Shown here piece after piece: positions 6,103 through 40,275 of a DNA stretch of 64,000 bases (the first letter of the stretch is position 1; the number at the start of each line of letters is the position of its first letter). A program made the position numbers and the translations under genes. The notes beneath the pieces were generated by a model. It was given only the letters and a program-made list of their open reading frames with translations, made no database searches and was not told the origin of the DNA. The stretch lies in the UHGV virus genome UHGV-0289908; one strand, 5' to 3'. This stretch comes from a virus.

Positions 6103-6149
6103 TTTTTAAAAACTCCTTAAAATCACTTATTAAAATTTTCTACTCATTC

Positions 6150-7210: not shown

Positions 7211-7257
7211 AAAAATAAATCCTCCTTGGGTATGTGTTGGTTAAGACTTAATTGAAA

Positions 7258-7986
7258 TTAGTTATATTTAACTTCAACCATTACCATTTTGTGTGCAACT
7301 GGGAATGCAGAGAAGTCGTCTGCTAATAAAGTTACTGATTGGAATGCGTCACGAACTCCAGTAACTTCTAAGTACATAACATCTGATTCTGGAGCAGAAG
7401 CTGTGTATTCATAGTGAGTTGCTTCATTTACCATTTTGAATTTGTCTCCAACTTTGATTTGGTCTGCACTACGTCCAGTGAAGTAGTCTTGAGATAATTC
7501 GAACTCATCATGTAATTCTAATGGAATAACTGGTACTGCTTTACCTGCACGGTTGCGGAAGATTCCTAATGCGTAATCAGTTTTCTTAGCTTGAGAGTAG
7601 TTAATCTCTGGCTTCATTACTAACATAGGTTTTACCTTACCTGCAATTAAATCAGTTGTAGGGATTTTCGCTTCACGAATCTCAGTTTCCCCTTCTTTTA
7701 ATCCTCCAACGAACACTAATGCCCCATTTGGCACTTCAACGTTTAATACTGCTGAGTGTAAACGTCCACCAGTGTTTGTCGCTTTAATTTTGCTTGTGTT
7801 ACAAACTAAATACTTGTTTGACATGTCTTTACCTCCGTCTGCTTGTGGCTCTACTGTTCTAGCGTAAGTTTTTGCCACTTTTGTTTTCTTTTCTTCTGTT
7901 TGAGTTTCTACCTGTTCCACTGCAACAACTTCTTCAACAAGAGTTGCCACTGGTTCAGATACTGATTTTTTGCGAGCCATTGACAC
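7258..7986 (-). CDS. head protein (decoration-like or minor capsid, positional)
   Basis: 242-aa ORF between scaffold-like and capsid-like genes. Confidence 0.45.
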   Translation of the reverse strand: MSMARKKSVSEPVATLVEEVVAVEQVETQTEEKKTKVAKTYARTVEPQADGGKDMSNKYLVCNTSKIKATNTGGRLHSAVLNVEVPNGALVFVGGLKEGETEIREAKIPTTDLIAGKVKPMLVMKPEINYSQAKKTDYALGIFRNRAGKAVPVIPLELHDEFELSQDYFTGRSADQIKVGDKFKMVNEATHYEYTASAPESDVMYLEVTGVRDAFQSVTLLADDFSAFPVAHKMVMVEVKYN

Positions 7987-7992
7987 TCCTCC

Positions 7993-9309: not shown

Positions 9310-9338
9310 TCACACACCTCCTTTCGAATATGGTCAAA

Positions 9339-9515
9339 TTAAAAAGTCAAGGTGTTTGTTACATTTGCCTTGACTTTTGCATTGCTGAATTTTAACTCTT
9401 TTGAGTTTGCAAAAACATATTTGACAGCAGATTCAAGAGGAACTTCACGAATTAATCGGTATCCGCTTTCAATTAGAGCGTCACGGTCAGATTCTGTATA
9501 TACTTCAATAAACAA
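9339..9515 (-). CDS. possible small protein in portal-scaffold gap (TTG start)
   Basis: 58-codon ORF with GAGGG RBS 7 nt upstream of TTG; same strand as operon; competes with RBS-less plus-strand ORF 9352-9567. Confidence 0.25.
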   Translation of the reverse strand: MFIEVYTESDRDALIESGYRLIREVPLESAVKYVFANSKELKFSNAKVKANVTNTLTF

Positions 9516-9520
9516 AGTAA

Positions 9521-11074: not shown

Positions 11075-11088
11075 CTGTCCACCTCCTG

Positions 11089-14000: not shown

Positions 14001-14139
14001 AGCGAGCCCACGAAATGAACTCTACCCATTTATCTAAATTCTGTTGAAATTTATCTCCATCTGGGTTAGAATAATATGGTATCCCAGTTTTTGGATTGAT
14101 TACTTTTTCAATAATCTGCTTGGCTTCTTCTTTATTCAT
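11089..14139 (-). CDS. terL: terminase large subunit containing an in-frame intein
   Basis: Extein reads ...FPRGYGK|TFTELLALY... giving Walker-A GYGKT once residues 93-536 are removed; C-terminal nuclease-like region present. Confidence 0.85.
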   Translation of the reverse strand: MNKEEAKQIIEKVINPKTGIPYYSNPDGDKFQQNLDKWVEFISWARFFPDLFLDLITPETGGIRLDLDQRVFIRVLVRFASVYGVFPRGYGKCVSGDTLILTNEGVKEIGSYFNYQDDNVETYIIPKQMTVSNRHKQMENVIAGVYSGYKDTKKIYTEEGIEIEPSLNHPVLVMTTDGNIDWKRTEDLHVGDYLITSRGDNVWGSRTKLTFDMHSWLNSFGGDSKWKIEKNKCNTPTELTEDLALIIGYLLGDGCLTRDNIILFTSKDQDMVERYHSFMNNVIGVEVKQRKTGIDYVVNGKYVREYFRQLGLSQSDAFTKVIPNIILEAPKKYVVKCLQGLFDTDGGVESRAVSFCTASEKMSKQVQTLLLNLGIISNRRTKISKQYQTKSYIITITGSNILKFRDEIGFSCQRKQELLEQRCKEYQGRTIKDIIPNQQSKIREFYESIGENVNKSSHPLYQVANKGGLFTYKKLNQMLNHERFHEAKHCEHFKSLQCENYFYSKIKTIKDSKAHVYDLSLDNTHSFVSNGLVSHNTFTELLALYVTAILYPNINLSMSAQTMQAAAGLVEEKHSEIVRFFPLIGAEIVGKPQFSKDNAEIHFTSGSTISTLANAQSSKGKRRHRLMMEEAALLNDFVFSDALEPIVNVPRRTIGYNPQVDPCEMNGQIHFLTTAYFKNTEYERCLAMVKEMAELKGKIVLGSSWELACEYGRGETRSQLLAKKEKLSPTFFATNYESRWVGSSDSCIIDLNKLFNIRTLPKAELKSDGKSEYYIGVDVARSTKTNNNQTSIVVGKVKRDKKDKVNHIQIVNIVNLPNGTNFTGQAIAVKRLQKLYKAVTVVIDINGLGVGLLDEIMKLHIDPITGEELIAFDTINTEHESDEAEALKCVWALQAQGLNTDIIVNFMNLVENGTLQLLEKVDQNVVANSDQDFLKSTVLPHVQTELLIEEIANLSLEQLNGGKLTVKRNSKSIDKDRYSALVYMIWYIMTHENKAKEEEEDFNIASLYCFSSPKIR
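12532..13863 (-). mobile_element. intein (444 aa) with LAGLIDADG homing-endonuclease domain inserted in terminase P-loop
   Basis: Starts with Cys (CVSGDTLIL), ends with His-Asn followed by Thr; internal LAGLIDADG-like motif IGYLLGDGCL. Confidence 0.75.
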
Positions 14140-15110
14140 TATAAGTCCTCACTTTCTGACTCTGTGTCTTGTGAGCGACTATAATCAGCTTTACGTTGTT
14201 CTAAGAAGTCATAAATTTCAGAATATTCGCAGTCTGGCAAGTTTTGCATTTTGCGAATGTAGTTGATATAACACCACAGAGTAAAGTCTACCTTATCCTG
14301 TGGTTTCTCAATGAACCGAGGTAGGATAGGGATAACATCAACCGCCTGTTCAACGGCACGTGTTAATTCTCCGAACCCACTAAGCCCCGATGTTAGGTCG
14401 TTCTTAGATAACTGACTCGGGTTGATACGAGCCGAAGTTGCCTGTTTCTGAGCTGCGTCTGCCCATTTTGACGCTTCTTTAAGGTCTCCTCTAGCAGTTG
14501 CAAACTCTTCTTTCACACGGAAACGACAATATGTAATTAATGCTTCCGTATGTAGAGCTGTATACTCTGGATAGCTTGCTCGTAACTGATTGTATTTTCG
14601 GTCAATGGCAATAAGCTCTTCATCTGTATAACCGAATCCATAAGTCTCTGTAAACTTATAGCGTCGCTCTGGTGACAATTTGTATACATCTGTACGCTCC
14701 ACTGCTTTGTCATTCATTAACTTTTCTTCACTTTCGGTAAACATACTATCATCCCAAGTGAAGTCTCGGTACTGGTGCATGGCAATGTCTTTCCAGTACT
14801 TCCCGATGATGGCACGTGGCTCATCATATTTGTTTGCATTTGTTACAAACACATGGTGAATATAAGGTCTGTCTAGTTGCTGTAATGTGCGTTTTAGATT
14901 GTCCATATCAATGGCACTCTTTTCTTCGTTAAGACACTTTTCAACTACACAAGCCTTACAGTATGGCATAAGCCCAGAAGCGGACTTAAAGCTCTTATAG
15001 AACTCTGTAGTACGCTTCTCAGTATTACATTCTGTGCATGTAATCTTTTTAATCTCTGGCTTTTCTTTTTTGGGCACTTTAATAGTACTTAAATCTTTTT
15101 TCCGAGACAT
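14139..15110 (-). CDS. Zn-ribbon protein upstream of and coupled to terL; possible small terminase/DNA-recognition subunit
   Basis: 323 aa; N-terminal CTEC...CKAC zinc ribbon; ATGA overlap with terL start. Confidence 0.45.
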   Translation of the reverse strand: MSRKKDLSTIKVPKKEKPEIKKITCTECNTEKRTTEFYKSFKSASGLMPYCKACVVEKCLNEEKSAIDMDNLKRTLQQLDRPYIHHVFVTNANKYDEPRAIIGKYWKDIAMHQYRDFTWDDSMFTESEEKLMNDKAVERTDVYKLSPERRYKFTETYGFGYTDEELIAIDRKYNQLRASYPEYTALHTEALITYCRFRVKEEFATARGDLKEASKWADAAQKQATSARINPSQLSKNDLTSGLSGFGELTRAVEQAVDVIPILPRFIEKPQDKVDFTLWCYINYIRKMQNLPDCEYSEIYDFLEQRKADYSRSQDTESESEDL

Positions 15111-15160
15111 GATAGCTCCTCCTTCTTTAAGGAGCTATAGCCCAACTCGATAACTCCTTA

Positions 15161-16339
15161 CTATTTTAAAATAATTTCGTGCAACACTCGACTGCCATCT
15201 GCATAATATACAACAAGTGTTTGTGATGGGTCGTTATTATAACGTTGTCGGTTGGCGAATGTGTCACTACCACATAAGCAACCGTTAATTACAGTGTTGT
15301 AAACGGTTTGGAAGTTGTGGAAATGTCCTAGGTGGACATAGTCAACGTCCATGTTCAAATATTCAGAGAGATTCTTTACTGCATCTTGAGGTTTCTTGCA
15401 GTTGTGCCCATGCTCTAATGCAACGACACGACCATTACCCAATGTGTAGACTTCAACTTCTTGGTCTACTCCACTCTTCTCGAACTCCATTCCAGTTCGA
15501 GCAGTAACTCCCCATTCAATTAAGCGAGTAAAGTTTTCCTCATGTAAATGCTCTTTATAGTTGGCATTGATTCTGTCATGATTCCCTGTAACGCTGTGTA
15601 GGCGAATGTGTTCTACACTAGGAGCTAGTGCTTCGATTGTTAAGCTGATTAGCTCACAAGCGAAACCAACCTGCTCCACAATGTCCATCTGTTGATAGAT
15701 GCGTGTTGTCGTATGGATTAACCCCGACAAAATGTCTCCACAGATGTCAATATTAAGCGTTTTCACGTTGTGCATTTTACAGTACTTGATTGTTTCTCCA
15801 ACTAAGTGTTCAACTCGTTTCGTTGCTATCTCTTGATTGAAGTGATTGTGAGGGGTATCAATCCCTAACCCCAAGTGCCAGTCTGACAAGATTAGGCATG
15901 CTTCTACATCGCTGTCCACCTTTTTGTGGACAATGTTTAAAGTAGGCTTTGCTTTCATTGCTTCAACAATGGCTTCTGCTAGTGCTTCCCAACGTGCTTC
16001 CCAACGTAAACGAGTGTTAATTTCTCGTTGAACATCTTGAAGTCGAACACGCTCTTTGAATAATTCTCTTTTCTTGGCTTCAATGTCTAACATTAAATCG
16101 CTACCCGCACTCTCTGATTGTGCGTTTGCAACTAATTGAACCATTTCATCATCTAATTGTTCAAGTAGTGGTTTTACAATGTAGTATGCTTTTCTCCCAT
16201 TGTCGCTTGAGCAGTCATAGTCACAAATGGCTTTAGCCCATTCCGAGTAATCCATGTCATACTCTTTGCGATTGTCTGTGATACGTTTAACATACTGCCA
16301 TTGTGTTTCATCTGTGCGTTTTCTTAAAATCTCGCTCAC
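15161..16339 (-). CDS. calcineurin-like metallophosphoesterase (Mre11/SbcD-type motifs) with ~140-aa N-terminal extension
   Basis: Motifs LSDWHLG, GDILSG, GNHD, EHGH, LGHFH in canonical order. Confidence 0.7.
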   Translation of the reverse strand: MSEILRKRTDETQWQYVKRITDNRKEYDMDYSEWAKAICDYDCSSDNGRKAYYIVKPLLEQLDDEMVQLVANAQSESAGSDLMLDIEAKKRELFKERVRLQDVQREINTRLRWEARWEALAEAIVEAMKAKPTLNIVHKKVDSDVEACLILSDWHLGLGIDTPHNHFNQEIATKRVEHLVGETIKYCKMHNVKTLNIDICGDILSGLIHTTTRIYQQMDIVEQVGFACELISLTIEALAPSVEHIRLHSVTGNHDRINANYKEHLHEENFTRLIEWGVTARTGMEFEKSGVDQEVEVYTLGNGRVVALEHGHNCKKPQDAVKNLSEYLNMDVDYVHLGHFHNFQTVYNTVINGCLCGSDTFANRQRYNNDPSQTLVVYYADGSRVLHEIILK

Positions 16340-16357
16340 CTTAAAATCCTCCCAGAA

Positions 16358-16612
16358 TTATTTAGTAATAACTAAGGTTTTCATTGGTTCTCCTAAGCTA
16401 TCATAGTTGTCAGAAGTATAGTCTAATAAAATCTCTTCTACCATGTAGCAGTCGTAACCCATGTTTTCAAAATGCTTATATACTTCGTCCATATCAATAT
16501 GTACTAAGTCATATAAGTCGTCCCCCATGAAATGTAACTCTGCACGGTCTTCGCCTTCTTTTAATAATTCTGTTCCTAATTCAATTAATGCTTCGGCAGT
16601 ATATGCGTCCAT
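16358..16612 (-). CDS. small acidic hypothetical protein
   Basis: 84-aa ORF, first gene after the tRNA/non-coding region. Confidence 0.45.
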   Translation of the reverse strand: MDAYTAEALIELGTELLKEGEDRAELHFMGDDLYDLVHIDMDEVYKHFENMGYDCYMVEEILLDYTSDNYDSLGEPMKTLVITK

Positions 16613-17487
16613 TTAAAATCACTCCTCTTAAAATCAAAGTCTCAAAACCATCTACCTTAAAGCAGATAAACAGTTTTGAGACTAGGAAGTCTCTATTGTG
16701 CAACACCTTGAGCTTCTTCTACCCTTAAGGCATTGTCTTATTGGTTTGGACAATCAAGCCCATTTCATGTATACTTCCAAGAAATCAATCTTGAAAGGCT
16801 AGTTGACGTTGCGTCTTCCGTTGAGCTTTATTTATTTTACCATTGTCACGCTCTATGACAACAAAGTGTGACTTGTTCCACTATTCTTTATTTTAAGCTA
16901 GTCTTAATGGCATAGACTAGAATCATTATAGGAAACAATGGGTAGTAACACAAACTTAATCGCCCTACCACCCATCCAAAACACTAGGTTTTATAGTTTA
17001 CAATGGCTTCAACTTTTAATTTGTTCCGACACTAGATAAATGTGAGTTGACAACACAATCGGGATTCTTCCCTCGCCAACATGGAGAACTTGTTCCATTA
17101 AGACTATTTCAAGTGTCACACAATTACAACATAGCCCTCTGTGAGTAAGCACAAGTAGTGTGGTTATTGTAACTTAACGTGCCTGTGGATAATGACCTAG
17201 GACGGCTTGACAGTGGTTGCGACCCTCGTCTGACAAGTCTTACACTCCCTATGTCCAATAAACAACTACGCTAGCTTAATCGCCCGTAGGTTCTGCGTGT
17301 ACAGTTAGAACACCTCACGACTACAGTAGTTATATTTTCTGTCGCACTCTGCAAGCGACTGTCTAGCCCATATGTCTAGCATTAATGATGACAATAAGAC
17401 TATGGATTGTCGCTATACACGTAGGTCATCACCCCTACGTATGCTCCCCTCTAGCCAAAAGCATGGTGGTCTAATGACCATGTTAAT

Positions 17488-17564
17488 TGGGGTTTCCTGT
17501 TGGATTCGAACCAACGATAGCTCGGTTATGAGCCGAGAGCTTTGACCGACTAAGCTAAGGAAAC
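17488..17564 (-). tRNA. tRNA-Met (anticodon CAU; could alternatively be lysidine-modified tRNA-Ile2), CCA encoded
   Basis: Manual cloverleaf: 7-bp acceptor GTTTCCT/AGGAAAC, D-arm GCTT/AAGC, anticodon loop CTCATAA, T-arm GTTGG-TTCGAAT-CCAAC, discriminator C + CCA. Confidence 0.8.
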
Positions 17565-17669
17565 AAAATAAAAAGAATGACCCTCATGACAGCCACGTGG
17601 ATAGCAGGAGAAAGAGTTTCAGCTCCCTTAGCCATTACTCGTGGATTTTTATGTAAGTTTAAAGTATCA

Positions 17670-17745
17670 TCTTTCAGCTTTGTAGTATAAATAGCTTTGA
17701 AGTTTCAACTTTCAACTTTAAACCTTCAACTTTGAGCTTTTCCCA
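17670..17745. repeat. short tandem AAAGTTGAA/TCAACTTT repeats upstream of tRNA-Met
   Basis: caacttt repeated 3-4 times plus agcttt repeats in 75 bp. Confidence 0.3.
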
Positions 17746-17942
17746 TGTATAAGTATTTACCCTTGCTCCGACGACTCTCTGCGTCTAGCCGTAAATCTTC
17801 CATTTATCTGTATTGTTCTATAGATAAGCACTTTTGCCCAATATAAGTAGAAAGTAACGATTTATTAACCCAAAACCGTTGGAAAGGGGAATCTCTCTTT
17901 GTGCCACTTCGTCACAAGGGTCATATTATTTATCTAGTCAAA

Positions 17943-18575
17943 TTAGTCTTCAATTACAATCTTAGTGATTGCATTTGAGACTGTTAAAGCAGTGTCAATC
18001 TCTAACTCGAAGTCTAAGATTTCTTGCTCACGTTTTTCGATTAAGTCACGTAACCCTAATGGGTCTACTAAATCCCAACCGTTTTTGTCACGATATGACT
18101 TTTCAAAAGAAGTGATGAACTCATCCCTCTTGTTTGCTAAGTCTCCGCTTGCCATAGCCAACACTTGACGTTGGATATAGTCTTCGACTTTATCGTTCTC
18201 ACGTGAAACTTTTGTTTCTGCATTGCGAAGAGCCTGCTTCATGCAAGCTAACACTTGTTTTTCGCTCTCAATGGTACGCTTGCGGTCAATGGCTGTCATC
18301 ACTGAATAAGTAACTCCTGCAACCTCAATCATTGTTTGAGCGTTGGATGTCATGATGGCATGTTTTAATTGTTGCTGACGTTTTAATAAAGCGTCCGCAG
18401 AGTCCATGATTGTTTTAGCACGCACTGCAAAGTCTGCTACAGGTTCACGAGTTTCAGAAACTCTGTTCTCAGAATTCTTGCGTGTTCCAATGATACGGAA
18501 GTCTGATAATCGTTTGTCAATACGGCTCTCTAAGGTATTTAACTCGTTTAAAGCTCTTTGAACTGTCATTTCCAT
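17943..18575 (-). CDS. hypothetical protein
   Basis: 210-aa ORF between tRNA genes; no motif recognised. Confidence 0.5.
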   Translation of the reverse strand: MEMTVQRALNELNTLESRIDKRLSDFRIIGTRKNSENRVSETREPVADFAVRAKTIMDSADALLKRQQQLKHAIMTSNAQTMIEVAGVTYSVMTAIDRKRTIESEKQVLACMKQALRNAETKVSRENDKVEDYIQRQVLAMASGDLANKRDEFITSFEKSYRDKNGWDLVDPLGLRDLIEKREQEILDFELEIDTALTVSNAITKIVIED

Positions 18576-18616
18576 ATGTATAACATCCCCTTTAAAATAA
18601 GTTTTTAAAATCGTTA

Positions 18617-18690
18617 TGGTGCTCCTACTCAGAATTGAACTGAGATTTCATCATTACCATTGATGTGTTCTGCCATTGAACTATAAGAGC
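18617..18690 (-). tRNA. tRNA-Thr (anticodon GGU), CCA encoded
   Basis: Manual fold: acceptor GCTCTTA/TAGGAGC, anticodon stem CATCA/TGATG with loop ATGGTAA, T-arm CTCAG-TTCAATT-CTGAG, ACCA end. Confidence 0.7.
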
Positions 18691-18736
18691 ATTTGTGGGA
18701 GGAATCCCACAGACTTTTACCTGCATTCTTCCATTT

Positions 18737-18828
18737 TGGCGGACAGGGTGGAATTCGAATCCACGCACGACTAAAAGCCGTCTAATGCCTTAGCAGGGCA
18801 CCCTCTTAAGCCACTTGAGTACCTATCC
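18737..18828 (-). tRNA. tRNA-Ser (anticodon GCU), class II with long variable arm, CCA encoded
   Basis: Acceptor GGATAGG/CCTGTCC, anticodon loop CTGCTAA, ~20-nt variable arm, T-arm GTGGA-TTCGAAT-TCCAC, GCCA end. Confidence 0.7.
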
Positions 18829-18935
18829 ATTTAGAGGGATGTAACACGCATGCCCATCCCTAGGTGTCGTCCGTAGACTTCCACCGCAATTCATATTTGA
18901 CATTAAAGTCCTCGTAAGGGTTCTCTAACTGGTCG

Positions 18936-20042
18936 CTAGTAGTTCATTCCTTCAACAGAATAATTATACTCGTCTAAGAACGTATTCAAGTCATCAAGTG
19001 AAGATGGCACTGCCACTGCTCCACACTTGACCTGTTCCATTGCTTCGTCAACTTTTGTGATGGTATCTTCTGTTAAGTTTGGATTTTCCACTGGTAATCC
19101 AACACCATCCGCTTTGATATCCATTACAATCGTTTCTCCACCTTTGAAAGTGTTGTTTGCATGGTTTTCCACATGCTCATATGAAGCTCGTCCTAAATTC
19201 TTCATGGCAGATGTCAAGATGACCGAACTACCATTGGAAATCAATCCTTCTGAATATTGGTCGATGTCAACTCCAACAATGTAAACGCTATCTCCAGACT
19301 CTGCTCGGCTCTTTGCTTCATTAATAGCTCCAACTCCGACTCCACCTGCTGCTTGCATGATAATGTCTGCTCCTTTATCATACATTGCTCCTGCAATAGC
19401 CTTTCCTGCGTCTACATCTGTGAATGTACCTTGATATAAATAGTCAATCACTTCAACATCTGTTCCGTAGATTGCATTGGCATAAGCCACACCTGCTACA
19501 AATCCCCATCCTAATTTTTGAACCGCAGGAACTTTCATTCCTCCAATGAATCCAACTTTGCCCGTTTGTGATTGTAAAGCTGACGCAACTCCCGTTAAGA
19601 AGCCTGCTTCATGTTCTGTGAAGAATACTGAGACGACATTGTCTCCAACTTCATAGTCCGACCCCACTAATGGAGTTCCATCAATCAATACAAAGTTGAT
19701 GTCTGGGTAAATGGCTTGGGCTTGCCCTATGGCTTCTTCAAACTTGAATCCTGCCACAACAATGACCTCATTGCCTGCCATTACCAGATTATCAATGGCA
19801 TTCATATAGTCTTGAGTTGACTCTCCGCTTGGTTGGATATATTGAATTTCTACGTTCTCATTATCTGCTTGATATTCCAATATTCCTTCCCAAGTCCCTT
19901 GGTTGAATGATTTGTCATCAATAGTTCCAGAATCTGTAACCATCCCAACTTTTAATGTTGACTCAGATGGGGCAATCTCTTTTTTGCTACAACCGATTAG
20001 TGTGAATGCACACACTGCCAATAATAGTGTAAACTTTTTCAT
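18936..20042 (-). CDS. BMP-family (PnrA/Med-like) substrate-binding lipoprotein
   Basis: Start at MKKFTLLLAVCAFTLIGCSKKE (lipobox LIGC) after GGAGGAAGA RBS; periplasmic-binding-protein-like sequence typical of nucleoside-binding BMP lipoproteins. Confidence 0.7.
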   Translation of the reverse strand: MKKFTLLLAVCAFTLIGCSKKEIAPSESTLKVGMVTDSGTIDDKSFNQGTWEGILEYQADNENVEIQYIQPSGESTQDYMNAIDNLVMAGNEVIVVAGFKFEEAIGQAQAIYPDINFVLIDGTPLVGSDYEVGDNVVSVFFTEHEAGFLTGVASALQSQTGKVGFIGGMKVPAVQKLGWGFVAGVAYANAIYGTDVEVIDYLYQGTFTDVDAGKAIAGAMYDKGADIIMQAAGGVGVGAINEAKSRAESGDSVYIVGVDIDQYSEGLISNGSSVILTSAMKNLGRASYEHVENHANNTFKGGETIVMDIKADGVGLPVENPNLTEDTITKVDEAMEQVKCGAVAVPSSLDDLNTFLDEYNYSVEGMNY

Positions 20043-20061
20043 GGGTGTTCTTCCTCCTCGT

Positions 20062-20283
20062 TTACATAAAGCAGTCGTCAGTTGCAACTTCTTCGTCTAA
20101 ATCTTTCTCAGCTTTTGCTTGGAATGATAATACTCCGTGTTTGTTATCAGCGTTTGCTAATAAATCTTGGATGAAGCAAACTCCTTCATCTTCTGTTTCG
20201 ATTGTCATGTCGTCAACATTTAAAGTCCCAGTGACTTTGATGGTATGAGTTTCGACAATCTTTTCTTGAATTGATTTTGCCAT
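20062..20283 (-). CDS. small acidic protein
   Basis: 73-aa ORF with AAGGAGG RBS. Confidence 0.5.
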   Translation of the reverse strand: MAKSIQEKIVETHTIKVTGTLNVDDMTIETEDEGVCFIQDLLANADNKHGVLSFQAKAEKDLDEEVATDDCFM

Positions 20284-20303
20284 ATTTAAAATCCTCCTTA
20301 AAT

Positions 20304-20597
20304 CTAGTTCATCTTTTTAAAGCGTTCTGTAATGGTGGCTTTAAGCCCCGTATATGGGGGAGATGTTACTCGTTCGCCATTCAGAATGCGAGTCGCTTCT
20401 GGTTTGTTCTGCTTATTGAAGACTACTAGGTCTCCAAATTTAACTGAGTCATAATCTTCTAATGACTCTAAGATTACTCCCTGCACTGTGTCAATGACAA
20501 GTGAGGTTGCTTCTTGAGAGATGTCTAGTCGTCGTGACAATAAGCGAATGAACTCTTGCTTTGGCATTTTCTTAGGTTTCTTTTTCGCCTTTGGCAC
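20304..20597 (-). CDS. HU/IHF-family histone-like DNA-binding protein with Lys-rich N-terminal tail
   Basis: C-terminal region ...GDLVVFNKQNKPEATRILNGERVTSPPYTGLKATITERFKK matches HU arm/beta-ribbon pattern (GxxxxFxxxxRxxRxxxNPxTGxxxxIxxxxxxxFKxG). Confidence 0.65.
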   Translation of the reverse strand: MPKAKKKPKKMPKQEFIRLLSRRLDISQEATSLVIDTVQGVILESLEDYDSVKFGDLVVFNKQNKPEATRILNGERVTSPPYTGLKATITERFKKMN

Positions 20598-20644
20598 TTA
20601 AAATCCTCCTTAAAATTTATTTGTATGTCATGTTTGTTAAGTCT

Positions 20645-20672
20645 AATTAAAAAGAGCGACACTAGGTCGCCC
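20645..20672 (-). terminator. rho-independent terminator between 20817-21584 gene and HU-like gene
   Basis: Hairpin GAGCGAC-actag-GTCGCCC followed by T-run on minus strand. Confidence 0.45.
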
Positions 20673-20816
20673 ATACATAAAAGGAAAAGAGAGAGAATGA
20701 AAAATGAAATGAAACATGGAGGGCGAGACACTTGTCCCTATATTCCCCTCCACGTAAAGAAAATGGACTAAAATCGCTAGAGCCCAAGTACTTCTTGGGC
20801 TCGAGGGCATTTTCTA

Positions 20817-21584
20817 TTACTCTACTTTTTCATTTTTTCGGTTTTTTCGTGCTTTTTCTGCACTTACTCTTTTGTGCTCTCGTTGTTTCTCTTTGGTACA
20901 TTCGGAGCAATATTTGGTTTTATTCCCCTTTATTATTACTCGCTTACCACACTCTTTGCAGTTGATGACTTTTGCTCCCTTATATGTACAATAATCCACA
21001 ATAAAGTCTTCAAAAGAAGTAATTGTCATAGCGGGCTCACCTTCAAAATCAATATAATTAATTTTCATAGCACACTTTCCAGAGCGGACAGAGTTAAACA
21101 CATACCCCAATTCCTCAAGTGTCCCAATCATCAGTTCTCGATTTACGGAGTTGCGATTCACTTTAATGTCCTTAAATAACTCGGAAGAGTTCTTTAACAC
21201 TATCCACTCTCCGTTTCTTCCCTTGGCTTTATTGTCTATCTTTAATAGTACAAGTAATCCAAAAGCTAGACGCTCCAGTGCTTCATTTTTTAACATTCCG
21301 ATTGCATTAAGTTCTGTTTGGGTAATGTGGATTTGTTCTACAGCGTTTAATTTAGAATCCTGTTTTGATTTGATGTCTCGTTTCAACTTCATCTTCCATG
21401 CTTTAGAGTTCCCCGTTGCTTCTTCCATGAATTCCATCATCTTATCCATTACCTCTTCTGGGGATAGTCCTAAGTGATAGAAGTATTTAATTAAAACAGA
21501 TATCTCAGTAGACGGTTTGCTACTGAGCTGTTTAGTTTCTAAAATCTGTTCTGCGTATTTTTTCTCATTTGGAATAATTTTCAT
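20817..21584 (-). CDS. hypothetical protein with C-terminal CxxC...CxxC zinc ribbon and basic tail
   Basis: 255 aa; NCKECGKRVIIKGNKTKYCSECTKEKQREHKR. Confidence 0.5.
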   Translation of the reverse strand: MKIIPNEKKYAEQILETKQLSSKPSTEISVLIKYFYHLGLSPEEVMDKMMEFMEEATGNSKAWKMKLKRDIKSKQDSKLNAVEQIHITQTELNAIGMLKNEALERLAFGLLVLLKIDNKAKGRNGEWIVLKNSSELFKDIKVNRNSVNRELMIGTLEELGYVFNSVRSGKCAMKINYIDFEGEPAMTITSFEDFIVDYCTYKGAKVINCKECGKRVIIKGNKTKYCSECTKEKQREHKRVSAEKARKNRKNEKVE

Positions 21585-21585
21585 T

Positions 21586-24339
21586 CTACTCTTCCTCCTT
21601 GAAATGCTTTGACCGTTTTGTGTGCATAGTAAATGTCATTCCTTTAAATTCAAATTCCCCTGTTGCTGACTGAATTGGATATGAGATTTGCCCTTGGTTT
21701 CTTTTCAGTAAGTTTTTAATAATCTGTTCTCCGCACACATTCCATACGACATATTTTGACTTGTTTGAAGAATAACAAATATCAATCATAATATTGCATA
21801 AAGTTTCCTCATTGGTGCATACTACAAGCAGGTCATTTTTAAATCTCTCTGTTAAGCGATTTTCAATGTCTGCTCGTTCATTTGAGGACATCTTCTGTTT
21901 AACCGATGTCTGATAGAACTTCTTAAGGTCGTCAATGTACTGCTCGTACAATGCAGCAACCTTCTTAGCCATACTACGTTTGTATTCAACATTAGGCGAT
22001 TTCAGAATTTCTTTGTCGAACTCTGTCTTGCGTGTGTCGAGCTTGACTTGCTGAAACACCTCTTCAACGTGCCAACAGATTTTGTTCATCAGACAAGCTG
22101 TCTCGTCTATAGGAAGTTGCTTTTTGAAGAAGTGAAGAGATTTTTCTTCCTCTTCTGTTCTGTCTGTTGACGCAATGATTTCGTCCATTGACTTCTTGAA
22201 CTTGCGTCGGCAACGAATGTTCTCACTCTTCACATAATCCATGTAATCCTTGCGTAGCTTTGGATAGATGTAAGTGAAGAAATATGGTTTTTTATCTGCC
22301 ACTAATTGACGATTAAACTCTTTAAAAGCGACTACCTCTTCCGAGTCTGTGTCCGAAGGCATTAAAGGTTGATAGCTTATCCATGACTTAGGAATCCCAC
22401 CAGAGGTTTCAATCCCTTTTGCTACGTCAATACTTTCTTGACTGTGTAGAATGGAAGACATAATTCGATAATCCAACTCTTCCCATTCTGGAGTCCCAAA
22501 GTCAAATCTCGCTTGAATACTTTGAATACATGTTGCCTTGTTTGTAATAACTCCAACATTCTCTGTCTTGCTTGCGAGCAATAACTTGTCAGAACGAATG
22601 TAGTCTTCTTCTGAACACATTTGCTTTTGAGCACTCTTTTGAAGGCAAATAACTGGCAAGGTGTCTCTTATCCCTTTCATAATGTATTCATTGTTTGTAA
22701 TGAAAACGGTATCACCATCACAGTCCATCCCCGATAGTCTAGGACATGTTGCGTCATAGGCATTTAGAACGTACAGCTCCCCAATGTGCTGATACCATTT
22801 TGCCATCTCTTCTGTGCAAACAATTTCAGCCTTACCAATGTTGTTATGAGAGACCATAGGTGCTCGGAACATCCCAACCTCTGACACTCCTTTGTCCACC
22901 CAGAATTTAGAATAAAATTGTCCAGATTTTAATAACCCTTTCACTTCCATTCCAAACATGTTCTCTGCCAAACATATAGGGTCAATAGTTACCGTTTGGT
23001 AATTTCCTTGTACTTTGATTTTCCCAATCTTGGTTTCGTCAATTCGTTTCTTTATCATGTTGTTGATAGATGTTCTAACATAAGGGTCGTTGATTAACTC
23101 TGGCTCAATCATAAGAGCACTAGCGTAATCATATGTATTGATATCTGTATTTTCAGACATCCCAATTCCTTTTAAGTATGCTAAAGATTTTCTAGGGTCT
23201 AGCCCTTTTACCTCAATTATCTCATCTATCGTCGGTTGAATAAGAGCATATATCTCTTCATCTGTTAAATCTAAAGACTGAATGAACTGATAGTTGGTAT
23301 CTCGAACCTCGTCCAATACCTTTGGAGTTTGCTTTGTGACACTAAATGTGTATTTGTTTTCTACACAACATCTATGATAGTGCTCCCATGAATCATAACT
23401 GTCCCACAACTTGAGCATTGAGGTTGTGATTACTAGGTCAACATCATCAACATTCCACTCTTTATCCCAAACATCTACAATGACCTCTTTGTTCGCTTTC
23501 TCTTTTGCAAACATCTTAAAGTCGAACACTAGGGCTACTCCTTTTAAGAAAGAATTCCTAATAATAAAACCGCTCGGAGTGTAATCTAGGTGCAGGTCTT
23601 TAGCCCAAACCTTCGCAAATTCGGGAGAGATAAAACCAGAGCCGTCGCTCGCATTTAGATTCATTTCATAATCTTCAATAACTCGCTTGTGTGGTCGTCC
23701 ATCTGTTACTTCTCCTAATTCGATAACGCTTGTTTTGAAATTCGTTTCCACATCGTGTACAATACAAACGTTAGGGGTGTCGGTTACTGGGTTACTAGCA
23801 CTCATTGTTAAGCTACGATAGGCACTTAATTTTGCAGGAACAAATTCTTTGTCATTACGACCATTGTCAATGCGTCTTTGTAATTCGTCTAAAATGGTTT
23901 CGTCCGCATAGAACACTTCTCCCTTTTTAATTGAAGCAGGAGTGGATAGGAAACGTTTGTATCGTGTTCCATTTATCACAAATCCTCGGTTAATTAAATC
24001 ATAGTGTTTTGATTTATCAATCTTGACACACACAAGATACTTCAAGAACAATATTTTGTCCAACTCTTGTTTCAGCGAAACGTATCTTTTACTATTGGCT
24101 TTATTATGCCCTTCCTGTGTTAAGTGAAAAATCTCTCTTTTGAGTTGTTGAACACGCTCTTCTTCATATCCCGTCTTGGCAATGTCGTCAATACTTCTAA
24201 TAACATACGAAGAAGCAAGTCCAACAATCCACCCTTCCTCTAATAGTTCGTCCATTTCAAGTTTTAAAGACATGTTAGAGTCAACAATCTCAGTGCTTGG
24301 AATTTTTATAATTTTTCTTATTGAATATAGGTTGCTCAC
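21586..24339 (-). CDS. large protein with DxDGD signature: candidate YonO-like single-subunit (two-barrel) DNA-dependent RNA polymerase
   Basis: 917 aa; motif YDATCPRLSGMDCDGDTVFITNN carries the DxDGD metal-binding signature of double-psi beta-barrel RNAPs (multisubunit beta', cellular RdRP, SPbeta YonO); HU-like gene nearby as in SPbeta yonN-yonO. Confidence 0.5.
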   Translation of the reverse strand: MSNLYSIRKIIKIPSTEIVDSNMSLKLEMDELLEEGWIVGLASSYVIRSIDDIAKTGYEEERVQQLKREIFHLTQEGHNKANSKRYVSLKQELDKILFLKYLVCVKIDKSKHYDLINRGFVINGTRYKRFLSTPASIKKGEVFYADETILDELQRRIDNGRNDKEFVPAKLSAYRSLTMSASNPVTDTPNVCIVHDVETNFKTSVIELGEVTDGRPHKRVIEDYEMNLNASDGSGFISPEFAKVWAKDLHLDYTPSGFIIRNSFLKGVALVFDFKMFAKEKANKEVIVDVWDKEWNVDDVDLVITTSMLKLWDSYDSWEHYHRCCVENKYTFSVTKQTPKVLDEVRDTNYQFIQSLDLTDEEIYALIQPTIDEIIEVKGLDPRKSLAYLKGIGMSENTDINTYDYASALMIEPELINDPYVRTSINNMIKKRIDETKIGKIKVQGNYQTVTIDPICLAENMFGMEVKGLLKSGQFYSKFWVDKGVSEVGMFRAPMVSHNNIGKAEIVCTEEMAKWYQHIGELYVLNAYDATCPRLSGMDCDGDTVFITNNEYIMKGIRDTLPVICLQKSAQKQMCSEEDYIRSDKLLLASKTENVGVITNKATCIQSIQARFDFGTPEWEELDYRIMSSILHSQESIDVAKGIETSGGIPKSWISYQPLMPSDTDSEEVVAFKEFNRQLVADKKPYFFTYIYPKLRKDYMDYVKSENIRCRRKFKKSMDEIIASTDRTEEEEKSLHFFKKQLPIDETACLMNKICWHVEEVFQQVKLDTRKTEFDKEILKSPNVEYKRSMAKKVAALYEQYIDDLKKFYQTSVKQKMSSNERADIENRLTERFKNDLLVVCTNEETLCNIMIDICYSSNKSKYVVWNVCGEQIIKNLLKRNQGQISYPIQSATGEFEFKGMTFTMHTKRSKHFKEEE

Positions 24340-25163
24340 TATTTTTTCATCTCCTTTTTCACTCTCTCTTGTACTCCATTTGCCTTTTGATAATACCGCT
24401 GTGCCTGTTCTTTGAATTTGGAAGGAGATTGCTTTTTACGAGAATGAGGTTGACGCTTCTCAAGAAGTCTCATGCAATAACTCGACACATCTTCAATCTC
24501 GTTGTTAACAAACTCTTTTTTCAATGACTCTGCACGGTCGCTTATCAAAGCATTTAAGCATGAACACCATTCGGTGGCGAAGAGCTGTCCTTGATTAAGG
24601 ATTAAGATACGCTCACTTACGTGTTCAACGATTCTTTTGAGCTCTGCTTTTGCAGTACTTGGAATCAAAGGGTCAATCTGTGTTATCATGGTTTTAATCT
24701 CCTTATGTCCTAATTGTTCCTTGTTCGATTCCTCAATCATTCGTTTTATTTCACACAGTCCTATAAACAACTGTAATTGTCGTCGTATGTCTTTTTCGAT
24801 TTGATTTTGGGTTCTTCGCTCTTCTGAAACTGAATGGTTGTTTCCTCCAAGTTGAACATTATAGCCCTTGTTGTTGTTGGTTGAGTCGTAATACTCTATC
24901 CAGAATTTTTCCTTTTCGTTTAATTCCGCAACTGTTAGTCCACGGTCAATTATTTCAACAATGAAGTTTTCCGCTCCGTATTTTCTAATGGAGTTTGCTA
25001 GGTATAGGTTTACTTTTGGAGAATTTGCGATTCTCTCCACTCCCACTCCTTTCCCACAATATCTTTTATTGAAGGTCTTTTGGGTTTGTCCTATGTACAC
25101 TTTTCCGTTTACTTGATTTGTAACCTTGTATATAATCATGGTTTCCGTTTCAAGTGCTTTCAT
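24339..25163 (-). CDS. GIY-YIG homing endonuclease (free-standing)
   Basis: N-terminal IIYKVTNQVNGKVYIGQTQ...FNKRY...ENFIVEIID...YN GIY-YIG module; start MKALETETM after AAAGGAG RBS; ATGA overlap with RNAP-like gene stop. Confidence 0.7.
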   Translation of the reverse strand: MKALETETMIIYKVTNQVNGKVYIGQTQKTFNKRYCGKGVGVERIANSPKVNLYLANSIRKYGAENFIVEIIDRGLTVAELNEKEKFWIEYYDSTNNNKGYNVQLGGNNHSVSEERRTQNQIEKDIRRQLQLFIGLCEIKRMIEESNKEQLGHKEIKTMITQIDPLIPSTAKAELKRIVEHVSERILILNQGQLFATEWCSCLNALISDRAESLKKEFVNNEIEDVSSYCMRLLEKRQPHSRKKQSPSKFKEQAQRYYQKANGVQERVKKEMKK

Positions 25164-25180
25164 CTCTCTACTCCTTTGTC

Positions 25181-25435
25181 TTATCCAATAAAAATAATTT
25201 TCACTTCTTCTCCTGTAATACGACAGTAACAATCTGCTACTCGACCCGAATCACGGATGAAATCAACAATCGACTCTGTTAATTCTTCAACGTATTCAAT
25301 CTTGTCTTTTTTTTCGTCCCCAAATCCTAAGAAGCGGTTCGGGGTAAAATACATACAACCATACCCCACTCTCGTTTGTACCTTGAACTCTTTTCCTACC
25401 ATGGACGCTAAAACCATACTGTCTAGCTTAGTCAT
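25181..25435 (-). CDS. small hypothetical protein
   Basis: 84-aa ORF with AAAGGAGG RBS. Confidence 0.45.
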   Translation of the reverse strand: MTKLDSMVLASMVGKEFKVQTRVGYGCMYFTPNRFLGFGDEKKDKIEYVEELTESIVDFIRDSGRVADCYCRITGEEVKIIFIG

Positions 25436-25555
25436 AAATATAAACCTCCTTTTGTCTTGTTTGTATTGGGAGAAACTTCCAGTTCACCCCTATACTTATA
25501 TTATAACTTGATTGGTGTTTTTTATCAATTCGTTTTATAATATTTAAGCGAAAGA

Positions 25556-26356
25556 CTAAGCTCTTTCAGTGTTCTCAATAATGCTAACCGAGATTGCTCG
25601 AAGGTCTCCCTCAAACACTCGTGCTACCACTTGATAAAACTCCCAAGTCATGTCCATATGCGAACAAATGTATTCCATACGATTGGTGTTTGACTTTACC
25701 TCTCCACGCTCAATGGCTCTTCGTAAACGGATATCAACATTCATGTGGTGAGCTAAGTCAAACTCCTTGTAAGCAAGGGCATAGCGTCCTTGATATCCAC
25801 CACGTGCTCCGAAACGGATGATTTGATTAATGCGTTGACGTAGTTCTGGTTTTGGTGAGTCTTGCGTTAATCCCATAATGATTTGCTTTTGATGTTCAAT
25901 CTCTTTCATTTGGGTTTCAATTTTGACATTCTGTTGCTGAATGATAGCATCTTTCTTATTCAGTGTTTGTTGGGCAATCATAAGAGCCTTAGCCATAATG
26001 GTTGCTTCATCATCTTCTTGAGCTACAGGGATGTAACCACCTGTCGTGCGAATTTGCTTTAGGATTTTCTTAACTTCTTTCTTGAATGCCTTAGCGATTG
26101 GTTTACGTGATTGCATAAGAACTTCATACAATCCATCTTCGGTTAAGAACCAAGCTCTTTGCTTTCCTCCAAGGGTACAAACATTGTTTGTAACCTTTTC
26201 TTCTTCATCAACTTTACGCAACATTGTTGAAACATCACTGTGTTCAATCCATTCTGCCACATCTTTTGCTAGGAACAATGGAGCTTCCTTAGTCCCATAC
26301 ATTTTAAATTCTTTTTCGAGCACTACCTGCTCATGCACTACTGTTAATGCTGTCAT
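25556..26356 (-). CDS. Bro-N domain protein (antirepressor-like) with C-terminal KilA-C-like region
   Basis: N-terminal FKMYGTKEAPLFLAKDVAEWIEHSDVSTMLRKVDEEEK...WFLTEDGLYEVLMQSRKPIAKAF typical of Bro-N/Ant N-terminal domain. Confidence 0.6.
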   Translation of the reverse strand: MTALTVVHEQVVLEKEFKMYGTKEAPLFLAKDVAEWIEHSDVSTMLRKVDEEEKVTNNVCTLGGKQRAWFLTEDGLYEVLMQSRKPIAKAFKKEVKKILKQIRTTGGYIPVAQEDDEATIMAKALMIAQQTLNKKDAIIQQQNVKIETQMKEIEHQKQIIMGLTQDSPKPELRQRINQIIRFGARGGYQGRYALAYKEFDLAHHMNVDIRLRRAIERGEVKSNTNRMEYICSHMDMTWEFYQVVARVFEGDLRAISVSIIENTERA

Positions 26357-26575
26357 TTCATTCTTTCTCCTTTATGTATTTTTCAGACATGCCCTCAGAA
26401 GCCATATAAGGCGATTTAAGAAGGCTAAGTATAACGATGATTAATTTATCGACCGAAACGCTATCTCTTCTCAGAGAGCCTTAAAATGCGTCTCAGAGGT
26501 ATTCTAGAGTTGCAAAACTCCGTATTTGAAGTTCTCATCGACATATTTGATTATAGCATTATTTGTCACTATTTG

Positions 26576-27646
26576 TCAAGAGGTTTTTCGTTCTTTTAAT
26601 TTTTCTTTTATTTTGGGTTCAAGATGGGTTTTTTGAGAGACATCTCCACAGGCTCTAAAAAGGACTTTCCCATCTTCTTTCCACTTTTTTGAGAGAATGC
26701 TCCGACTCGCTCTGTCCTTGTACCCTAACAAGGGCTTATCCTTTTCTACTTTCGATTGTTTGCGAGCAAATGTTTGTTCATTACTGGTTCGAGAGATGGC
26801 ATTGATTCTGGAAGTCAATGAGTCAATGGTAATTCCCAATTCTTGTTGTTGTTGATAACGTTCTTTTACCATTTCTTCATATCCTTCACTGATGGCTATT
26901 TCGTAACACTTGTAATAGAAACGAATTCCAATTTCCTTAAGACCTTCATTCACATTTCGGATATATTCTCCCCAACGTCCATCTGCAATAATGGCACTTT
27001 CCCCGCTACGTAAATCGTACCCCATGTGTTTCATAGCACCGTGACGAACATTGATGATATTTGCCAAATCTCCCCCAGTTGCTTCATGGTACTCTCCTTG
27101 AGTATCACAGAAGACAATGATATCCCGTTTAATTAAACGACCTTGACTTTCCATTCTTTTAAACATCGTTTGAATTCTGTCGTCAGCTTTATCATAAGTT
27201 CTTTCAAAGAAATATCGAGTGGCAATAGAAGAAGTACCCAATAACTTCTCTGTGATGTCTTGATTCTTATAGCAAATGTTAAAGTTGTGATTTACATAGC
27301 CCAAGGATTGAAATAGATTGAGCTTCGTGATTCGTAACACCCTAGAATTCCCGTTAACCTGTTCAGCATTGGCTAATAGGTTAATCATGACTTCCTCGGA
27401 TAAGTCCTGTAATTCAGACCTACGGGTTCTAACAACAGGAGTTGCTTCACCAGTAACTTCGGTAATGATGTATTTATGACCTGCACGTGTCCATTTGCAA
27501 TATTGCTCCAATGTTTTCATTTGTGCTTTCCAACTGTCGCTTCCACCTTTGTAGATTGTCCATCCCATAATAGCACAAATCTCTTTATAGTTCTTAAATT
27601 CACGTCCGACCCAAAGTTCGGATTTATTAACCTTGTACTTACTCAT
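26576..27646 (-). CDS. hypothetical protein, first gene of leftward operon
   Basis: 356-aa ORF directly after the large control region. Confidence 0.5.
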   Translation of the reverse strand: MSKYKVNKSELWVGREFKNYKEICAIMGWTIYKGGSDSWKAQMKTLEQYCKWTRAGHKYIITEVTGEATPVVRTRRSELQDLSEEVMINLLANAEQVNGNSRVLRITKLNLFQSLGYVNHNFNICYKNQDITEKLLGTSSIATRYFFERTYDKADDRIQTMFKRMESQGRLIKRDIIVFCDTQGEYHEATGGDLANIINVRHGAMKHMGYDLRSGESAIIADGRWGEYIRNVNEGLKEIGIRFYYKCYEIAISEGYEEMVKERYQQQQELGITIDSLTSRINAISRTSNEQTFARKQSKVEKDKPLLGYKDRASRSILSKKWKEDGKVLFRACGDVSQKTHLEPKIKEKLKERKTS

Positions 27647-27664
27647 AAATGTACCCCTTTCTAT

Positions 27665-28250
27665 GTTTCAAAAAAAGCCCCTATATTAACCCCCCTAATA
27701 TAGTTATTATATTATATATTTAGGGGTTTTAAACAGGGGTATTTTTTTTGTTTCAGCTCTGACATCAGTTCGTCAAAACTCGACTTCCTTATTTTATAAT
27801 ATTTAAGCACAGTTGTCAATAGTTTTTCGGTACAAAGTTTAACAACTTCGTACCTCACACATCCAAGCTCCGTCACTTCGTTCCTACCTTGTCTGTGGTT
27901 ATTGACCATGAAATGAAGTATTATGACCCGTCCGAACTGTGAGGGACGAACAGTTTGGCGGTAAGGTCACAATACGAATGGAATGAGTATTGTGACCGCA
28001 AAATCTTTTTATCAATAAAATTTTTTATTTACCGACATTTTATTGTAATGGGTATGAGCCTTAATATAGGACGATTTAAGAAGGGGTTATTTAGGGTATG
28101 GTTAATTTTATATGGGGATGTGTAACGTTGCTTAGAAAGGCTTATATTGCGTTATAGGGGTATTGTGAGCCATCTATATAATGATGAATGTGATATATGG
28201 GTATGGGGACAAATATAGAATATGGGGTATTTATACGGAAACACACCCCC
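27665..28250. repeat. cluster of ~8 copies of a TATA-n-GGGGTAT / CCCCTA-ATA motif (both orientations)
   Basis: e.g. gcccctatattaa, cccccctaatatag, atatatttaggggtttt, caggggtattttt, ttatatggggatg, gttataggggtattg, atatgggtatgggg, atatggggtattta. Confidence 0.5.
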
Positions 28251-40259: not shown

Positions 40260-40275
40260 TAGGGAGGTGTTTTAA

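Follow-up and report, generated by a model that had tools for sequence, protein, structure and literature searches.

A YonO-family single-chain RNA polymerase gene upstream of the late block of virus genome UHGV-0289908

To our knowledge, YonO-type enzymes are smaller than any other relative of the cellular RNA polymerases, and we know of one member that has been studied so far. They have been proposed to resemble the single-chain ancestor of the cellular enzymes. Here, we analyzed a 917-aa protein encoded within a stretch of 64,000 nt of virus genome UHGV-0289908 (the window, to which coordinates refer unless another locus is named). An original prediction, made from the sequence letters, had read this protein as a YonO-like single-subunit polymerase heading the late/structural genes. 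The best overall explanation of the data, to which we assign a probability of about 0.8, is a single-chain phage polymerase of the YonO family that would transcribe the late block together with a partner protein.

YonO of phage SPbeta is a strictly DNA-dependent, processive RNA polymerase (Forrest et al., 2017, PMC5467207). Its activity was abolished when the aspartate triad was changed to asparagine, and 37 late genes of SPbeta, forming one operon with a start site upstream of yonK, were found to need the enzyme; its promoter and any requirement for a factor were left open (PMC5467207). Our literature searches returned no report of a YonO promoter later than 2017. Across two-barrel RNA polymerases in general, eight residues are invariant, which in Qde1 are D709, R738, K743, R962, P964, D1007, D1009, and D1011 (Ruprich-Robert and Thuriaux, PMC2919709).

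Sequence and predicted fold of the polymerase

The open reading frame (ORF) of the polymerase, which includes RLSGMDCDGDTVFITNNEY, matched SPbeta YonO by BLASTP (E 6e-35, 27% identity over 515 residues) with the pairings DCDGD/DNDGD, RAP/RSP, IIRNSFLKG/VRLPWVKG, and ASDGSG/TDGCG. A profile of 50 homologues (38-84% identity) aligned with YonO over 642 columns (hhalign, 99.94%, E 2e-36), joining residues 116-877 of the window protein with residues 130-789 of YonO. Assignment to the YonO family of two-barrel polymerases is thus virtually certain, in agreement with the original prediction. Close homologues align from residue 1, e.g. the 917-aa protein P0001 (98% identity, 100% coverage), which supports the GTG start of the ORF.

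Residues D232, R261, K266, R492, P494, D539, D541, and D543 were invariant in the 50 homologues and correspond exactly to the eight positions listed for two-barrel enzymes (PMC2919709). The spacing of five residues between R and K is that of Qde1 R738 to K743. The string MDCDGDTV had been proposed as the DxDGD catalytic signature, and this is borne out by the alignment of DCDGD with the essential triad of YonO and by the invariance of its aspartates. On its own, the motif is rare but only suggestive. Translation of the window in six frames gave two occurrences (in the polymerase ORF and in a 62-codon open stretch at 47295), with a mean of 0.09 occurrences in 100 mononucleotide shuffles; it gains its meaning from the homology to YonO.

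The polymerase was modeled by AlphaFold with a predicted local distance difference test score (pLDDT) of 90.4 and a predicted template modeling score of 0.84. In a Foldseek search of the PDB, the top 21 matches, comprising all significant ones, were RDR2 or QDE-1 (E 1e-18 to 2e-12, template modeling score (TM) about 0.4-0.5 over ~900 columns, Foldseek probability 1.0). They were followed by weak local matches to bacterial beta-prime (E about 2e-3, TM 0.07), and no YonO-family structure was detectable in the PDB copy searched. In the BFVD fold library, phage 'RdRP' models were followed by weak matches to the large subunits of giant-virus and poxvirus polymerases. DSSP placed residues 539-543 in a loop between H531-534 and E544-548. 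The comparison with YonO and QDE-1 by profile and Foldseek, proposed along with the original prediction, therefore recovered both, and an unrelated fold did not appear among the significant matches.

The polymerase body is homologous to that of SPbeta YonO and carries the same DxDGD, RxP, R...K, and D signature. YonO differs in its length of 839 aa and in its end, a CxxC-x13-CxxC ribbon with a basic tail, whereas the window enzyme is without any CxxC and ends in a small beta domain. QDE-1 and RDR2 (PDB 2J7N, 7W82, and 7ROZ) share the single-chain two-barrel architecture and the eight active-site residues; however, they serve in eukaryotic silencing and use RNA as template, display only 11-15% identity, and have no phage context, partner gene, or HU neighbor. 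With beta and beta-prime, two subunits belonging to the multi-subunit RNA polymerase, the window enzyme has in common the DxDGD loop and the basic residues of the double-psi beta-barrels (PMC2919709). Here, one chain stands against five subunits, the fold matches were weak and local, and nothing homologous to the trigger loop, flap, or clamp was detected in the window enzyme.

The family is large. At E up to 1e-3, 1775 cluster representatives (50% clustering) were found, and 519 at E up to 1e-30. A tblastn search of annotated phages gave 42 records with homologues, including c-st, PMBT24, BUCT082, and SPbeta with its relatives, and recovered yonO of 26 Bacillus phage records. The description of the family as barely characterized therefore holds insofar as one member has been studied, but not with respect to its size or to homologues in cultured phages, which were already annotated. 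Clostridium phage c-st (CST179/178/177), Enterocloster phage PMBT24, and Bacillus phage BUCT082 carry enzymes of the same subfamily as the window (29-38% identity over 95-98% of the length). The polymerase gene is not discussed in the PMBT24 paper. By a search of PHROGs, the window polymerase falls into three families of unknown function.

Many homologues are half-proteins, ending either at query residues 539-541, i.e. inside DxDGD, or at ~637-640, near an invariant IDxAKG (P0229, P0232, P0235, P0264, P0270, P0275, and P0287, and P0102, P0188, P0194, P0203, P0208, and P0213). PHROGs 25339 and 35857 represent the two halves of the polymerase. In c-st (L013 6977-10086), the polymerase is likewise encoded by two ORFs with a 369-nt gap between them, split near the DxDGD loop and with insertion sequence elements around. 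These half-proteins suggest recurrent introns, inteins, or splits at catalytic motifs.

A partner protein encoded next to the polymerase

A gene for a 255-aa protein starts 1 nt after the polymerase stop. The N-terminal domain of its model (pLDDT 87.6) is helical, and the remainder is made up of a winged helix, a zinc ribbon, and a long basic helix. All lineages examined, i.e. loci L002, L005, L007, and L025, the phages PMBT24, c-st (CST177), and BUCT082, and L024 (Paenibacillus), have a homologue of this partner directly behind the polymerase stop or overlapping it. In c-st, the 2005 annotation names CST177 'YonO-homolog (C-ter only)', and in PMBT24 the ribbon is a CxC...CxxC variant. A 241-aa ORF occupies the same place on the P0283 contig and is likened to the partner by position only.

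Of 268 polymerase homologues, a single one, P0236 (1173 aa), contained a CxxC pair. Comparison by hhalign and hmmsearch --max identified its C-terminal 263 residues as a member of the partner family (hhalign 98%, E 1.9e-13, 228 columns). P0236 recurred on five or more contigs that stem from different sequencing runs and is a natural fusion of polymerase and partner. In YonO, the polymerase body ends at about residue 789, and the last 50 residues (790-839) form a zinc ribbon (CCIC...CQSC) and a basic tail. Three architectures can thus be distinguished: (i) a polymerase body with a fused zinc ribbon, as in SPbeta YonO; (ii) a polymerase body with a separate helical/winged-helix/zinc-ribbon protein, as in the window and most relatives; and (iii) all parts in one chain, as in P0236. 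SPbeta has no separate partner gene, whereas in the window the ribbon resides on the protein that appears to be translationally coupled to the polymerase.

The three architectures argue for a physical or functional partnership. Whether the partner is a functional subunit or factor of the polymerase we judge at even odds, and its domains would suit a DNA-binding factor for initiation or specificity. Archaeal TFE and eukaryotic TFIIE-alpha, in which a winged helix is followed by a zinc ribbon, offer an analogy for the partner only. They were not the top fold matches (ORC2 and CRP/FNR winged helices scored higher) and have no sequence similarity to the partner; a likeness of this kind is common to winged-helix domains in general and is no proof of relatedness.

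Promoters, late leader, and gene order

Sigma-70-like sites were counted at a minimum of 10 out of 12 consensus matches. The virion block (1-20300) contained one sense site in 20.3 kb and eight antisense sites, the leftward cluster with the polymerase gene (20301-28000) five sense sites in 7.7 kb and four antisense sites, and the rightward block (28001-52950) 19 sense sites in 25 kb and nine antisense sites. In agreement with these counts, a promoter-scan tool reported 52 sites in 1-20000 (52.3 expected) and 112 in 40001-60000 (78.5 +/- 7.1 expected). The originally noted contrast in sigma-A promoters is hence real for the virion block, where sense sites are rare, but does not extend to all leftward genes: the polymerase gene is preceded by near-consensus sites at 25528, 26579 (12/12), and 27819 (Table 1). 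These sites fit an early or middle gene that is transcribed by the host and encodes a late polymerase.

All genes from 27.6 kb to 0.5 kb are oriented leftward. Searches against SPbeta proteins (BLASTP/phmmer) produced a collinear series of yonO, yonJ (E 4e-22), yonG (3e-18), yonF (9e-20), yomZ, and yomU. Both SPbeta and the window share the order of yonO, HU, a long non-coding leader, yonJ, and yonG, then terminase and portal, and the loci of homologues display the same order together with the Pfam families YonJ_CC, YonG_N, YonD_N, and YonB. The window is therefore regarded as a distant SPbeta-like module, and the placement of the polymerase at the head of the late/structural block is upheld by the collinearity of the downstream genes with the SPbeta late operon. 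For the HU-like gene, predicted about 1 kb downstream in the manner of yonN, the distance (989 nt after the polymerase stop) and the family (PF00216) proved right; however, it is not the immediate neighbor, as the conserved partner gene lies in between. The HU protein scored 30.6 bits with PF00216 (cut-off 22.4) and YonN, of the same family, 124.8 bits; BLASTP gave no direct alignment of the two. An HU gene is located 3' of the polymerase module in L002, L005, L007, PMBT24, c-st, BUCT082, and L025, and the order of polymerase, partner, and HU is shared by the three named phages.

The 1.3-kb ORF-free leader of the window is analogous to the 1.7-kb gap between yonN and yonK in SPbeta, the site of the YonO-dependent start. 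According to the primers used for primer extension, the SPbeta start lies within L001 8946-9139 (L001 denoting SPbeta), 0.3-0.5 kb past yonN and 1.2-1.4 kb ahead of yonK (PMC5467207), so that a long non-coding leader, comparable to the ORF-free stretch of the window, opens the late transcript of SPbeta. The window leader differs from that of SPbeta in having three additional tRNAs and a Bmp lipoprotein gene.

A 78-nt element is common to both leaders. Its copy in SPbeta (L001 9204-9282) lies just downstream of the start-site region, and further copies were present in L002-L004 and BUCT082. When viral contigs were scanned with the invariant core of the element, all nine matches were SPbeta-like and situated between yonN and yonK/yonJ. 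Three compensatory stem pairs separate the SPbeta and window lineages. Within the SPbeta-like set, neither variation nor covariation was seen, and the fold z-score was only -1.5, so that an RNA structure is plausible but unproven. A covariance model of the element found no copies in L005, L007, PMBT24, c-st, or L011, and no Rfam family matched it. Even the SPbeta-like locus L015 lacks the start-site region (L001 8847-9204); there, the yonN stop adjoins the element (L015 7246-7324). Either the late start differs among close relatives, or the 78-nt element sits closer to the signal for initiation than one would gather from the SPbeta data.

The strongest indirect support available for transferring the function of YonO to the window enzyme comes from BUCT082 (L014; genus Spbetavirus). 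Its DNA is 94% identical to SPbeta over 1.55 kb of the leader between yonN and yonK, a stretch that takes in the start-site region, and 97% identical beyond it. In place of YonO, it carries a window-type polymerase (924 aa, no CxxC) with 25% protein identity to YonO, as well as the partner. Accordingly, the two polymerase forms appear interchangeable in front of what is essentially one late leader.

Several other elements of the leaders and their surroundings were considered. Upstream of the HU gene, the motif TTTCATTTTTCATTCT may serve in regulation; its exact pattern has one copy in each of the window, L002-L004, and L005-L006, in all cases upstream of HU, and is unrepeated in the window. 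The motif TTTCATNTTTCATTCT was rejected as a repeated promoter, being single-copy. An 80-nt non-coding block at 17311-17390 (minus strand), with a GCTAGACA direct repeat and a hairpin, is essentially identical in L002-L004 (L002 17294-17373), the polymerases of which are only 84% identical as proteins; it too was rejected as a repeated promoter, as it is single-copy and confined to these close relatives. An Rfam '6A RNA' match at 16816-16866 (minus strand; 42.5 bits, gathering score 41.2) overlaps a sigma-70-like site. It was rejected as a late promoter or leader, since it is located in a ~600-nt window-specific insertion absent from L002, L003, L005, L007, and SPbeta. In SPbeta and BUCT082, an Rfam DUF3800-VIII motif (47.5 bits; L001 10021-10086 and L014 8632-8697) sits within the YonO-dependent leader at ~260 nt upstream of yonK and possibly belongs to the 'unannotated non-coding RNA' that Forrest et al. 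mention. In c-st, a RAGATH-18 match (64 bits) lies just upstream of the HU gene.

Table 1. Positions of the polymerase gene, its conserved codons, and neighboring features in the window
Feature	Position	Strand	Remarks
Sigma-A-like site	27791-27819	minus	11/12; upstream of polymerase gene
Unknown gene	26576-27646	minus	
Sigma-A-like site	26550-26579	minus	12/12 with TG; upstream of polymerase gene
Bro-N / anti-repressor gene	25556-26356	minus	
Sigma-A-like promoter	25500..25528	minus	TTGATA-17-TATAAT, 11/12; upstream of 84-aa ORF, homing-endonuclease and polymerase genes
84-aa ORF	25181-25435	minus	
Free-standing GIY-YIG homing-endonuclease gene	24339-25232	minus	Abuts polymerase start; PHROG homing-endonuclease families E 9e-24
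YonO-family single-chain two-barrel RNA polymerase gene	21586..24339	minus	917 aa, GTG start; ORF list, BLASTP, hhalign, AlphaFold, Foldseek
D232...R261...K266 codons	23542..23646	minus	Beta-like barrel residues, comparable to Qde1 D709, R738, K743; invariant; align with YonO TDGCG, VRLPWVKG
R492-A493-P494 codons	22858..22866	minus	RxP motif, comparable to Rpb1 R446/P448 and Qde1 R962/P964; invariant; aligns with YonO RSP
DCDGD codons (D539, D541, D543; residues 539-543)	22711..22725	minus	Predicted Mg-binding triad of beta-prime-like barrel; aligns with YonO DNDGD
Conserved 255-aa partner gene	20817..21584	minus	N-terminal helical domain, winged helix, CxxC-x13-CxxC zinc ribbon, basic C-terminal helix
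Partner zinc-ribbon codons (C209, C212, C226, C229)	20898..20960	minus	Invariant Cys
Single-copy motif TTTCATTTTTCATTCT	20694..20709	minus	Upstream of HU gene; candidate regulatory site
Terminator-like hairpin	20654-20672	minus	Between partner gene and HU gene
HU-family DNA-binding protein gene	20304-20597	minus	Positional counterpart of SPbeta yonN; PF00216; phrog_379
73-aa ORF	20062-20283	minus	
Bmp/PnrA-type lipoprotein gene	18936-20087	minus	PF02608, E 1e-68
78-nt two-hairpin element	18825..18902	minus	Common to SPbeta late-operon leader; blastn E 1e-7; covariance model 85-95 bits
tRNA-Ser	18737-18828	minus	
tRNA-Thr	18617-18690	minus	
210-aa gene	17943-18575	minus	
ORF-free leader before virion operon	16613..17942	minus	1.3 kb; tRNA-Met, 80-nt block, 20-bp hairpin
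tRNA-Met	17488-17564	minus	
Conserved 20-bp hairpin	16638-16683	minus	
84-aa ORF	16358-16612	minus	
yonJ-like exonuclease gene	15161-16339	minus	
yonG-like gene	14139-15110	minus	
Terminase large subunit gene with intein	11089-14139	minus	1016 aa
Portal gene	9521-11074	minus	PHROG portal E 3.5e-100
Head and tail genes	below 9521	minus	

The homing-endonuclease gene at the polymerase start scored 20.2 bits with the GIY-YIG Pfam model, just under the cut-off. It is missing in L005 and present in the P0283 contig and in L011/L012, and GIY-YIG genes just upstream of the polymerase occur in unrelated lineages as well. The terminator-like hairpin before the HU gene may be set beside an annotated stem-loop directly 3' of yonO in SPbeta. 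The Bmp gene and the tRNAs for Ser, Thr, and Met sit between HU and the virion genes, in the counterpart of the late leader of SPbeta; L002 and L005 have kept the Bmp gene, and L007 is without it. The terminase intein covers about residues 100-536 (Intein_splicing 60 bits, LAGLIDADG_3 72 bits), and in the same terminase region L002 and L005 have group I introns (Rfam 51-88 bits) instead. In the rightward block, a Pistol self-cleaving ribozyme was found at 31875-31941 (plus strand; 60.8 bits, Rfam gathering score 34.5), with a copy in the close relative L002 (2805-2868, minus strand; 54.6 bits). Two tyrosine-integrase-like genes (56908-57810 and 57996-59234, both plus strand) and a ParB-like partition gene (59846-60805, minus strand) are also present. 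As ParB is found in c-st too, which is carried as a plasmid prophage, the window element may be temperate or plasmid-borne. As to the host, a megablast search of the window against the phage collection gave no match, and a genome-collection scan returned only a 1.9-kb fragment of an Anaeroplasma metagenome-assembled genome.

Proposed function, alternatives, and significance

The window enzyme is likely a DNA-dependent transcriptase of late genes. The proposed course of events would comprise four steps: (i) the host sigma-A RNA polymerase would transcribe the leftward 27.8-20.8 kb cluster from the near-consensus promoters, yielding the polymerase and, through translational coupling, the partner; (ii) D539, D541, and D543 would act with D232, R261, K266, R492, and P494 where its two double-psi beta-barrels meet; (iii) the phage polymerase would transcribe the leftward late block in a DNA-dependent and host-independent manner, as YonO does in SPbeta, from the long non-coding leader with its tRNAs through the yonJ-like, yonG-like, terminase, portal, head, and tail genes; and (iv) the partner would probably serve the polymerase as a DNA-binding initiation/specificity subunit, or as a clamp.

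A number of points weigh against this reading. Its functional assignments are transferred from YonO, a protein with 27% identity. The placement of DCDGD at the interface of the barrels is a prediction from the alignment and the global fold match. The nearest solved structures, RDR2 and QDE-1, are RNA-dependent enzymes, and the structure thus leaves the template preference unsettled. Single-sequence searches with the window polymerase gave no match in Pfam, NCBIfam, or the PDB sequences. The profile search of the PDB sequences yielded short coiled-coil matches to haemagglutinin, regarded as noise, and a marginal match to RDR2 (E 0.05), the sole sequence-profile link there, which covers the D232...R261...K266 segment. 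The match of YonO residues 790-839 to the C-terminal module of the partner is short (hhalign 86%, E 4.7e-6, 56 columns). As to initiation, a late-promoter motif in repeated copies was not found in the window, and the SPbeta start-site region L001 8847-9204 showed no homology to the window, L002, L005, L007, PMBT24, or c-st. Moreover, the leader holds a sigma-A-like site at 16861-16834 (TTGTCA-16-TAAAAT, 10/12 with TG), so that the host polymerase could contribute to late transcription.

An active DNA-dependent polymerase might have its main task elsewhere than in the virion genes, be it the tRNA/non-coding cluster, the priming of replication, or middle genes only. The three tRNAs, the long non-coding leader, and the conserved RNA-like elements directly downstream of the gene would suit such a role, as would the sigma-A-like site in the leader and a window in which no late promoter was identified. 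We nevertheless consider it unlikely, because the YonO-dependent transcript of SPbeta starts in the equivalent leader and, as a single operon, extends across structural and lysis genes (PMC5467207), and because sense sigma-A-like sites are nearly absent across 20 kb of virion genes.

Alternatively, the enzyme could be an RNA-dependent RNA polymerase that copies phage or host RNA, for instance into double-stranded or antisense RNA for regulation or counter-defence. Apart from the RNA-dependent fold neighbors, this is what the database names of homologues convey: 'RNA-dependent RNA polymerase' for PMBT24 and UniRef records, as opposed to 'DNA-directed RNA polymerase' for Goe SPbeta phages. The Pfam RdRP family PF05183 matched neither the window protein nor YonO; P0004, 74% identical to the window polymerase, scored 64.1 bits (cut-off 23.8), and a match is precomputed for many homologues. 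However, these names stem from the name of the Pfam family and not from experiments, and the sole characterized bacterial or phage member, YonO, strongly prefers DNA and is required for late transcription (PMC5467207). The window gene holds the same position in a collinear module, and a window-type enzyme replaces YonO beside the 94% identical late leader of BUCT082. An RNA-templated role thus appears quite improbable.

That the polymerase travels in the virion, enters with the DNA, and transcribes early genes in the manner of N4 or crAss-like phages seems very improbable. Two-barrel virion polymerases do exist in crAss-like phages and P23-45, and the polymerase gene adjoins the structural block. 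It lies, however, upstream of the virion genes and not within them, and has strong sigma-A-like promoters of its own; crAss-like proteins gave only insignificant BFVD matches (E above 0.1), and YonO is made after induction and acts on late genes (PMC5467207). Finally, the second D.DGD at 47295 and the missing direct Pfam match of the window protein could be cited in favor of a chance DCDGD in an unrelated fold (that of a primase or structural protein, for example); this reading is already refuted by the YonO homology over 642 profile columns, the eight invariant signature residues, and fold matches exclusively to two-barrel polymerases.

With a YonO-family late polymerase as the favored reading, the window adds a well-preserved member of the largest, uncharacterized subfamily, from phages of gut and soil Firmicutes. 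As such, the polymerase extends a known, thinly studied family; what is new are the partner, the pattern of fusion and fission, the polymerase swap, and the shared leader element. The comparison yields a candidate accessory subunit, indicated by fusion and strict adjacency, the exchange of polymerases between BUCT082 and SPbeta, and a conserved element in the leader. If the point about annotation holds, the label 'RNA-dependent RNA polymerase' on these phage genes is probably misleading. More tentatively, and at less than even odds, YonO-type phage polymerases may commonly be two-component enzymes. The partner would then be a dedicated subunit for promoter recognition and initiation, similar in function to sigma or TFE/TFIIE yet unrelated to them, which is coupled in the window clade, fused in P0236, reduced to a ribbon in YonO, and which together with the 78-nt element would set the recognition of the late operon. 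If true, this would answer the question posed in 2017 as to whether YonO needs a factor.

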